Assembly: GCF_003334335.1 (NCBI RefSeq)
Contig: NZ_QOWQ01000011.1
Length of the DNA stretch: 64,000 bases
Direction: 5' to 3' (one strand)
Source of the DNA: Escherichia coli
Lineage (GTDB): Bacteria > Pseudomonadota > Gammaproteobacteria > Enterobacterales > Enterobacteriaceae
In this document: positions 27,851 through 27,944 of the stretch, in pieces
How positions within the stretch are numbered: the stretch's first letter is position 1
How the letters are laid out: each line of letters begins with the position of its first letter
The notes under the pieces: model-generated
Seen by the model: only the letters and a program-made list of their open reading frames with translations
Told to the model about the DNA's origin: nothing
The model's database searches: none
Position numbers and translations under genes: made by a program

Positions 27851-27944
27851 TCCGCAGTCGTAGATGCCGGAGGGGCGCACCACACCCGCCGGCAATTCGC
27901 ACCATTATGGTGCGCTTGCACACATTCAATGCCGGAGAGCAGCC

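Follow-up and report, generated by a model that had tools for sequence, protein, structure and literature searches.

Why should the short spacer between potF and potG, in the middle of an ABC-transporter operon, contain a palindrome of the type recognised by NtrC, and on which promoter would NtrC act from there? In the 64-kb stretch of Escherichia coli DNA analysed here (the window), potF runs to the end of its stop codon at 27850 and potG begins with a GTG at 27945, leaving the 94 bp that the original prediction had described, and the palindrome it placed at 27898..27914 is indeed a perfect 8+1+8 inverted repeat (CGCACCAT-T-ATGGTGCG, together CGCACCATTATGGTGCG). The claim that it is close to the NtrC consensus also stands, as it agrees with TGCACCA-N3-TGGTGCA at 12 of the 14 specified positions; the two mismatches are the outermost T and A, which are replaced by C and G. 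It is the top match to this consensus within the 64-kb window, and the inner pattern GCACC-N5-GGTGC occurs once, against 0.06 expected from shuffles (a match was obtained in 6 of 100 shuffled windows). The spacer is 100% identical to that of K-12 MG1655, in which the dyad occupies NC_000913.3 894944..894960 (window coordinate + 867,046), and a 601-bp query spanning the dyad matches 5,418 of 5,426 complete E. coli genomes, with 100% identity to strain 300709.

From 5' to 3' the spacer is made up of a GC-rich hairpin, the dyad (box 1), a second box (box 2), the potG Shine-Dalgarno sequence GGAG and the GTG start (Table 1). The candidate box 2 starts 19 bp after box 1, with 19 bp between the two centres in E. 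coli, and would thus provide the two adjacent boxes expected for cooperative NtrC oligomerisation. Around the potG start, GCCGGAGAG is kept across the Enterobacterales. The original prediction had also drawn attention to a half-site-like element upstream of the palindrome: GCGCACCAC is present at 27875..27883, where it lies in the loop of the GC-rich hairpin, but unrelated sequence replaces it in E. albertii and in other genera. Since E. albertii keeps the hairpin with a different inner-stem and loop sequence, the resemblance of GCGCACCAC to a half-site is probably due to chance. Another NtrC-like dyad, TTCACTCTGAAAGTGCA (9/14), is located at 27773..27789 in the 3' coding region of potF and scores 10/14 in E. 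asburiae, Pseudocitrobacter and Klebsiella; it is probably coincidental because it codes for the conserved residues LFTLKVQ.

Table 1. Features of the potFGHI locus, in window coordinates.
Feature	Position	Strand	Basis
potFp, sigma54 promoter TATGCACGTTTATTGCA	26662..26678	+	pattern match; sigma54 ChIP-seq OS08; RpoN SELEX
potF, periplasmic putrescine-binding protein gene	26738..27850	+	ORF list, RefSeq annotation
GC-rich REP-like hairpin directly 3' of the potF stop	27865..27894	+	RNA fold
NtrC box 1 CGCACCATTATGGTGCG, strong, 12/14	27898..27914	.	dyad match; inside published SELEX peak and gel-shift probe
NtrC box 2 TGCACACATTCAATGCC (candidate), weak, 8/14, keeps GCA-N9-TGC	27917..27933	.	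sequence match
potG ribosome-binding site GGAG (27934..27937) and GTG (27945)	27934..27947	+	sequence, annotation
potG (ATPase)	27945..29078	+	ORF list, annotation
potH (permease)	29088..30041	+	ORF list, annotation
potI (permease)	30038..30883	+	ORF list, annotation

Binding of NtrC at this site was regarded by the original prediction as plausible and not established, but in vitro it has been established since 2021. Shimada et al. (Microb Genom 7:000653, PMC8743547) used genomic SELEX-chip with NtrC treated with acetyl phosphate and reported a peak at 894,130, between potF and potG, with an intensity of 95% versus 97% for glnA, which makes it the second-highest spacer peak after glnA. The coordinates in that study follow an older K-12 numbering with a 778-bp offset from NC_000913.3, an offset deduced from sigma54 ChIP-seq data that put the potF motif at 892,939 in the older numbering; on this scale the spacer extends from 894,119 to 894,212 and the dyad from 894,166 to 894,182. 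NtrC also shifted a 'potG' probe in a gel-shift assay (PMC8743547), and the published primers map to window 27612..28031, defining a 420-bp probe that contains the dyad and in which the dyad is by far the top NtrC match. The SELEX peak and the gel shift show that phosphorylated NtrC (NtrC~P) binds the spacer, in keeping with the predicted NtrC-type operator tied to nitrogen control of the pot genes. Furthermore, nitrogen limitation raised potG mRNA 6.0-fold and potI mRNA 3.2-fold, from which the authors concluded that RpoN and NtrC are both required (PMC8743547).

In the same SELEX experiments 67% of the peaks lay inside ORFs (PMC8743547), and in vitro binding alone is therefore no proof of function. 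The published ChIP data, to which the original prediction had referred for a check, come from nitrogen-starved cells, in which Brown et al. 2014 (PMC4066584) called 21 NtrC peaks by ChIP-seq at a threshold of at least 9-fold; none of these falls in the interval from glnH (847 kb) to rutA (1073 kb), hence none at the spacer or at potFp, and potF appears neither in the text nor in the supplement of that paper. NtrC binding to the spacer is thus established in vitro, with no peak called in vivo at this threshold. The binding having already been published, the site itself is no discovery, and there is little doubt that the dyad is a genuine NtrC site.

The palindrome is also conserved in related pot operons, as the original prediction demanded: the box is kept in the potF-potG spacer of 15 Enterobacteriaceae genomes spanning at least 11 genera. 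Among its holders are E. albertii, two Citrobacter and three Enterobacter genomes, an Enterobacter-like MAG, Leclercia, Cedecea, Pluralibacter, Superficieibacter, Mangrovibacter, Cronobacter and Klebsiella. Throughout 13 aligned genomes the GCACC...TGC core of box 1 is invariant and the remaining spacer is unalignable; beside this alignment, near-matching boxes occur in the Klebsiella and Cronobacter spacers. A second element, TGCMCC, follows 19 bp after the start of box 1 in most genomes, 22 bp after it in Citrobacter and 31 bp after it in Mangrovibacter. Relative to the potG start the boxes range from -47 to -126 across genomes, on either side of the spacer hairpins, and this varying position fits a position-independent DNA element. 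The 90% identity cluster of E. coli PotG has members from E. coli and Shigella only. No spacer box is present in Salmonella, Pseudocitrobacter, Buttiauxella or the non-Enterobacteriaceae sampled, and no comparable arrangement of box and promoter was seen at distant gamma-proteobacterial potG loci (Vibrio, Shewanella, Aeromonas, Pseudomonas, Halomonas and others).

The sole sigma54 site in the pot locus is potFp, located approximately 60-75 bp upstream of the potF ATG, with the boxes 1.23 kb downstream of it. This promoter has an atypical -24 element, with TG in place of GG (TATGCACG), and its ATGCAYG-N4-TTGCA sequence is invariant in the 13 aligned Enterobacteriaceae. The motif is that of the sigma54 ChIP-seq peak OS08 (Bonocora et al. 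2015) and, despite the atypical -24 element, potFp ranks first among the RpoN-holoenzyme SELEX peaks genome-wide (PMC8743547). Elsewhere in the window, TGGCGAAGAAATTGCA at 16612..16627 matches the sigma54 ChIP-seq site OS07 (TTGGCGAAGAAATTGCA, at 882,888 in the older numbering) as well as an RpoN SELEX peak in the ybjG/cmr spacer. As a sigma54-dependent promoter, potFp needs an enhancer-binding protein.

In nature, NtrC enhancers are usually found 100-200 bp upstream of their promoter. In the 450 bp upstream of potF, no NtrC match of at least 10/14 is found in E. coli or in most relatives, and the 13-genome alignment of the upstream region contains no conserved GCAC-N9-GTGC block; what is conserved there is the promoter and several A/T-rich blocks. 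The one sequence considered as an upstream NtrC box for potFp, TGGTGCA at 26413, stands isolated, is not part of a conserved block and was rejected. NtrC SELEX likewise gave no peak at or above 40% in the spacer between ybjN and potF (PMC8743547), and over the 6-7 kb from rimK to rlmC the box in the potF-potG spacer is the only NtrC box of at least 11/14 in E. coli, Klebsiella and Cronobacter. An A/T-rich block approximately 130 bp upstream of potFp (TGCATAAAAATTTGTTAAATACCGTTTTTTAATC, 26519..26552) is strongly conserved across genera and probably represents the Lrp, ArgR and ArcA sites of EcoCyc-based potF-promoter figures (PMC8282354). The Lrp and IPOD-HR papers deal with the potF upstream region only; they draw sites for Lrp, ArgR and ArcA there and none for NtrC.

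The distribution of the box follows that of the promoter. An intact potFp accompanies the spacer box in all 15 Enterobacteriaceae genomes that carry the box. S. enterica and S. bongori, which also belong to the Enterobacteriaceae, have AGGCA or CGGCA in place of the -12 TTGCA of potFp, approximately 60-75 bp upstream of potF, and in both species the box is absent and the spacer holds a REP-like hairpin only. Nine genomes outside the family (Pantoea, two Erwinia, Rahnella, Brenneria, two Yersinia, Acerihabitans and an Orbaceae genome) have neither potFp nor the spacer box. Of the 11 genomes in which potFp is degraded or absent, none has the box; the co-occurrence is phylogenetically non-independent and corresponds to roughly one gain and one loss. 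Pseudocitrobacter and Buttiauxella retain an intact potFp with no spacer box and no strong NtrC box within approximately 7 kb. Taken at the sequence level, the pattern suggests that potFp and the box were gained jointly in the Enterobacteriaceae and lost jointly in Salmonella, and that potFGHI may have left the Ntr/sigma54 regulon in the Salmonella lineage; potFGHI is not listed in the Salmonella sigma54 regulon table, which does include the other NtrC operons (Hartman et al. 2016).

The most likely answer to the opening question, held with about even confidence, is that boxes 1 and 2 together form a remote downstream enhancer of potFp. When nitrogen is limiting, oligomers of NtrC~P would assemble on both boxes, reach potFp from downstream by a loop of approximately 1.23 kb over the potF coding region and contact the closed sigma54-RNA polymerase complex at potFp, leading to an open complex and to the induction of potFGHI as a whole. 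A partner promoter does lie within looping range, 1.23 kb from the boxes, albeit in an atypical geometry with the enhancer downstream and transcribed. Reitzer and Magasanik are said to have found in 1986 that NtrC sites still work when displaced by over 1 kb from glnAp2, on its upstream or its downstream side. The conservation of the boxes, the lack of any other strong box or sigma54 motif in the locus and the co-occurrence of box and promoter are the grounds from which the loop between the spacer site and potFp may be inferred. SELEX binding, the lack of an upstream enhancer, the lack of an alternative promoter and the co-occurrence all count in favour of the enhancer. Against it are the missing NtrC ChIP-seq peak at the spacer or potFp (Brown et al. 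2014, at least 9-fold), the retention of potFp with no strong box in Pseudocitrobacter and Buttiauxella, the usual placement of natural NtrC enhancers a short way upstream of the promoter, and the location in a transcribed region, where the enhancer would be swept by every elongating polymerase. The original prediction spoke of nitrogen-dependent control acting within the operon; the link to nitrogen control is supported, but the genome comparisons speak more for regulation of the entire operon at potFp, with the boxes as a downstream enhancer, than for regulation confined to the operon's interior.

If the boxes are the enhancer of potFp, they would constitute a rare natural example of a bacterial enhancer acting over kilobase range from downstream, which for NtrC has so far been mainly engineered, and the annotation of a separate 'potGHI' sigma54 operon would be corrected. 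The enhancer could also explain how potFp, which is among the strongest sigma54-binding promoters of E. coli, operates with no recognisable upstream NtrC site. Furthermore, every transcript begun at potFp with its help would extend across the enhancer and might dislodge NtrC from it, which would make the circuit intrinsically self-limiting or bursting. The full proposal, in which potFGHI has a natural enhancer 1.2 kb downstream, is self-limiting or bursting through transcription across it and carries a misassigned 'potG promoter' label, is advanced tentatively and with somewhat less than even confidence.

The rival reading that best withstands the evidence is that the spacer holds a high-affinity NtrC site unused for pot regulation in vivo, whether as a decoy, a titration site or a relic, with potFp activated from weak sites or from solution. 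This would account for the lack of a ChIP-seq peak at the spacer in nitrogen-starved cells (Brown et al. 2014) and for the two genera that keep potFp without any strong box, and it would place the site with the many SELEX peaks in ORFs or intra-operon spacers that have no known role (PMC8743547). An unused site would not be expected to keep its core letters and second box in 15 genomes of at least 11 genera within a fast-evolving spacer, nor to be lost exactly where the sigma54 promoter has decayed, as in Salmonella, and this reading is considered unlikely, if still worth some weight.

Slightly less probable is that NtrC bound to the spacer acts negatively, either as a roadblock or from an operator on a weak internal sigma70 promoter, and so tunes the ratio of potF to potGHI. 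There is precedent for NtrC binding within an operon (glnLG, listed as direct-binding peak 19 by Brown et al. 2014, PMC4066584), the site lies between binding-protein and membrane-component genes, where differential expression is usual, and potI was induced less than potG (3.2-fold and 6.0-fold, potF not being among the genes measured; PMC8743547). The sigma70-like sequence that could serve as the internal promoter, TGGACC-16-AATAAT at 27824..27851, matches at only 9 of 12 positions, is part of conserved coding sequence and stops 47 bp short of the dyad, with which it does not overlap. It is the sole nearby sigma70-like match on the + strand, so that the overlap expected of a glnLp-type operator is not seen. 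A roadblock fails to explain why boxes occur only together with the sigma54 promoter potFp and why both were lost in Salmonella, and the absence of reported in vivo occupancy (Brown et al. 2014) weighs against negative control too. The sigma70-like sequence spans the potF stop codon and could give a weak constitutive potGHI transcript, or it may be a chance match.

That the boxes serve an internal sigma54 promoter, 'potGp', driving a separate potGHI transcript is improbable, even though the SELEX paper labels the site in this way. Shimada et al. 2021 name the target 'potG / potGHI', found a 45% SELEX peak at the spacer with RpoN holoenzyme plus NtrC, and observed that RpoN holoenzyme shifts bands of the potG probe (PMC8743547). 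However, RpoN holoenzyme alone gave no SELEX peak at the spacer at a 30% cut-off (PMC8743547), sigma54 ChIP-seq found no site in potG, potH or potI (Bonocora et al. 2015), and the potG and potI RT-qPCR results are equally explained by transcription from potFp. No GG-N10-GC motif (TGGCACG-N4-TTGCW) scores above 8/12 on either strand of 27300..28600, and the 13 genomes share no sigma54 motif at a conserved position in the 500 bp to each side of the boxes. The nearest resemblance, TGGTGCG-CT-TGCA (TGGTGCGCTTGCA), has GG-N7-GC spacing and so lacks 3 bp. Box 2 of E. coli ends directly before the GGAG of potG, 11 nt before the GTG, and abutting the Shine-Dalgarno sequence in this way it leaves no room for a promoter downstream. 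Of the roles offered by the original prediction, that of an internal promoter, taken as a sigma54 promoter, thus finds no support, the -24/-12 motif, ChIP-seq peak and RpoN-alone SELEX peak all being missing.

How readily such a promoter can be mimicked is shown by C. werkmanii (L010 2951..2966; compare window 27907..27920), in which a 3-bp insertion between the boxes creates TGGTGCGTTATTTGCA, a sigma54-like -24/-12 motif of 10/12 with correct spacing, in this genome only. It was rejected as a real promoter, the insertion being lineage-specific and the other Citrobacter having AG for GG, and the case shows that an NtrC half-site followed by TGCA easily imitates a sigma54 promoter. The 'potG promoter' and 'potGHI operon' are called known RpoN/NtrC targets in PMC8743547 with reference to Zimmer 2000, which is a microarray study of Ntr-controlled genes. 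The 'potG promoter' label therefore looks like a conflation, as sigma54 ChIP-seq and RpoN-alone SELEX put the only sigma54 site upstream of potF.

It may also be asked whether the dyad is conserved as DNA or as RNA. Folded as RNA, the E. coli dyad forms a 7-bp stem with a UUA loop (-10.1 kcal/mol, z = -4), and the hairpin is stable in most, not all, of the genomes folded; it is almost gone in Superficieibacter (-2.9 kcal/mol, z = -0.4). The fold of the whole spacer is unremarkable (z = -0.45). In the 13 genomes the outermost pair covaries (C-G, U-A, U-G), two-sided changes are confined to this pair and pair 7/11, and the overall covariation score is above all 500 shuffles. Three of the seven pairs of the putative stem are invariant, although the flanks diverge completely, and uncompensated breaks affect pair 6/12 in 4 of the 13 genomes and pair 7/11 in 3. 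Conservation thus tracks the letters of the NtrC consensus and not pairing, which points to a protein-binding DNA site; this reading is preferred because inner pairs break uncompensated and because the second box is non-palindromic yet conserved. An intrinsic terminator or attenuator was rejected, as a + strand scan of the spacer found no stem with a T-run (CTTGCACACATT comes directly after the dyad). An Rfam scan of 25500..29500 (E <= 1) gave no match in the spacer, and no Term-seq or 3'-end paper mentioning potF was found in the literature.

That the palindrome acts as a hairpin in the potF-potG mRNA (for processing, 3' end protection or translational coupling), with its NtrC likeness and in vitro binding incidental, is improbable, though it can still fold in the mRNA: the stable stem, the covariation and the typical presence of stem-loops 3' of binding-protein genes in ABC-transporter operons would suit it, but the stem breaks in some genomes and is nearly lost in Superficieibacter, there is no T-run or Rfam match, the conserved letters are exactly those of the NtrC consensus with the adjoining non-palindromic TGCMCC also kept, and the spacer already has a separate REP-like hairpin.

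This separate hairpin has a predicted stability of -17.5 kcal/mol (z = -2.5) and probably is the usual stabiliser of a binding-protein mRNA. The E. albertii version keeps the stem, with different inner-stem and loop sequences, at -17.2 kcal/mol, and other genera have a different REP-like hairpin at the same position. Clearer REP-like elements are seen there in Leclercia, Enterobacter, Salmonella and others (GTAGGCCGGGCA..., GCCTGATAAGCG...), and the E. coli hairpin has no REP annotation in the K-12 record. REP and other stem-loop elements follow periplasmic binding-protein genes, as in the malE-malF and hisJ-hisQ intervals. Lying directly 3' of the binding-protein gene of an ABC transporter, the hairpin at 27865..27894 fits this class; the dyad, unlike these REP elements, is conserved by its letters and not by pairing, and binds NtrC.

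Among known NtrC systems, the closest parallel is the E. coli glnAp2 enhancer, which consists of two strong 17-bp NtrC (NRI) dyads at -140 and -108. The pot site shares with it the consensus TGCACCA-N3-TGGTGCA, a near-equal SELEX intensity (95% versus 97%) and the combination of two adjacent boxes with a sigma54 promoter induced by nitrogen limitation. Unlike glnA, which was enriched 71-fold in ChIP-seq, the pot spacer was not called (Brown et al. 2014). The two enhancers also differ in geometry: the glnAp2 sites are 100-150 bp upstream of the promoter, both strong and approximately 32 bp apart, whereas the pot site is approximately 1.23 kb downstream of potFp, inside the transcribed operon, and the second of its boxes, 19 bp from the first, is weak (8/14).

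A second parallel is found within glnALG itself, where an NtrC site overlaps the internal sigma70 promoter glnLp and represses it. Like that operator, in the glnA-glnL spacer, the pot site is an NtrC site between two genes of a nitrogen-regulated operon; unlike at glnLp, no sigma70 promoter overlapping the dyad was found. Remote or downstream enhancer sites are represented by the FhlA site for hyp, located inside the hyc operon, and by the FlbD ftr elements of Caulobacter. Together with displaced NtrC enhancers, these resemble the arrangement proposed here for potFGHI in that a sigma54 promoter is looped to from far away, from downstream or both. The literature searched describes no case in nature of NtrC acting from an enhancer 1.2 kb downstream and within the operon it controls. 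Action of NtrC over kilobase distances and from downstream has been shown with engineered constructs, and the pot site is a natural candidate for the same behaviour.
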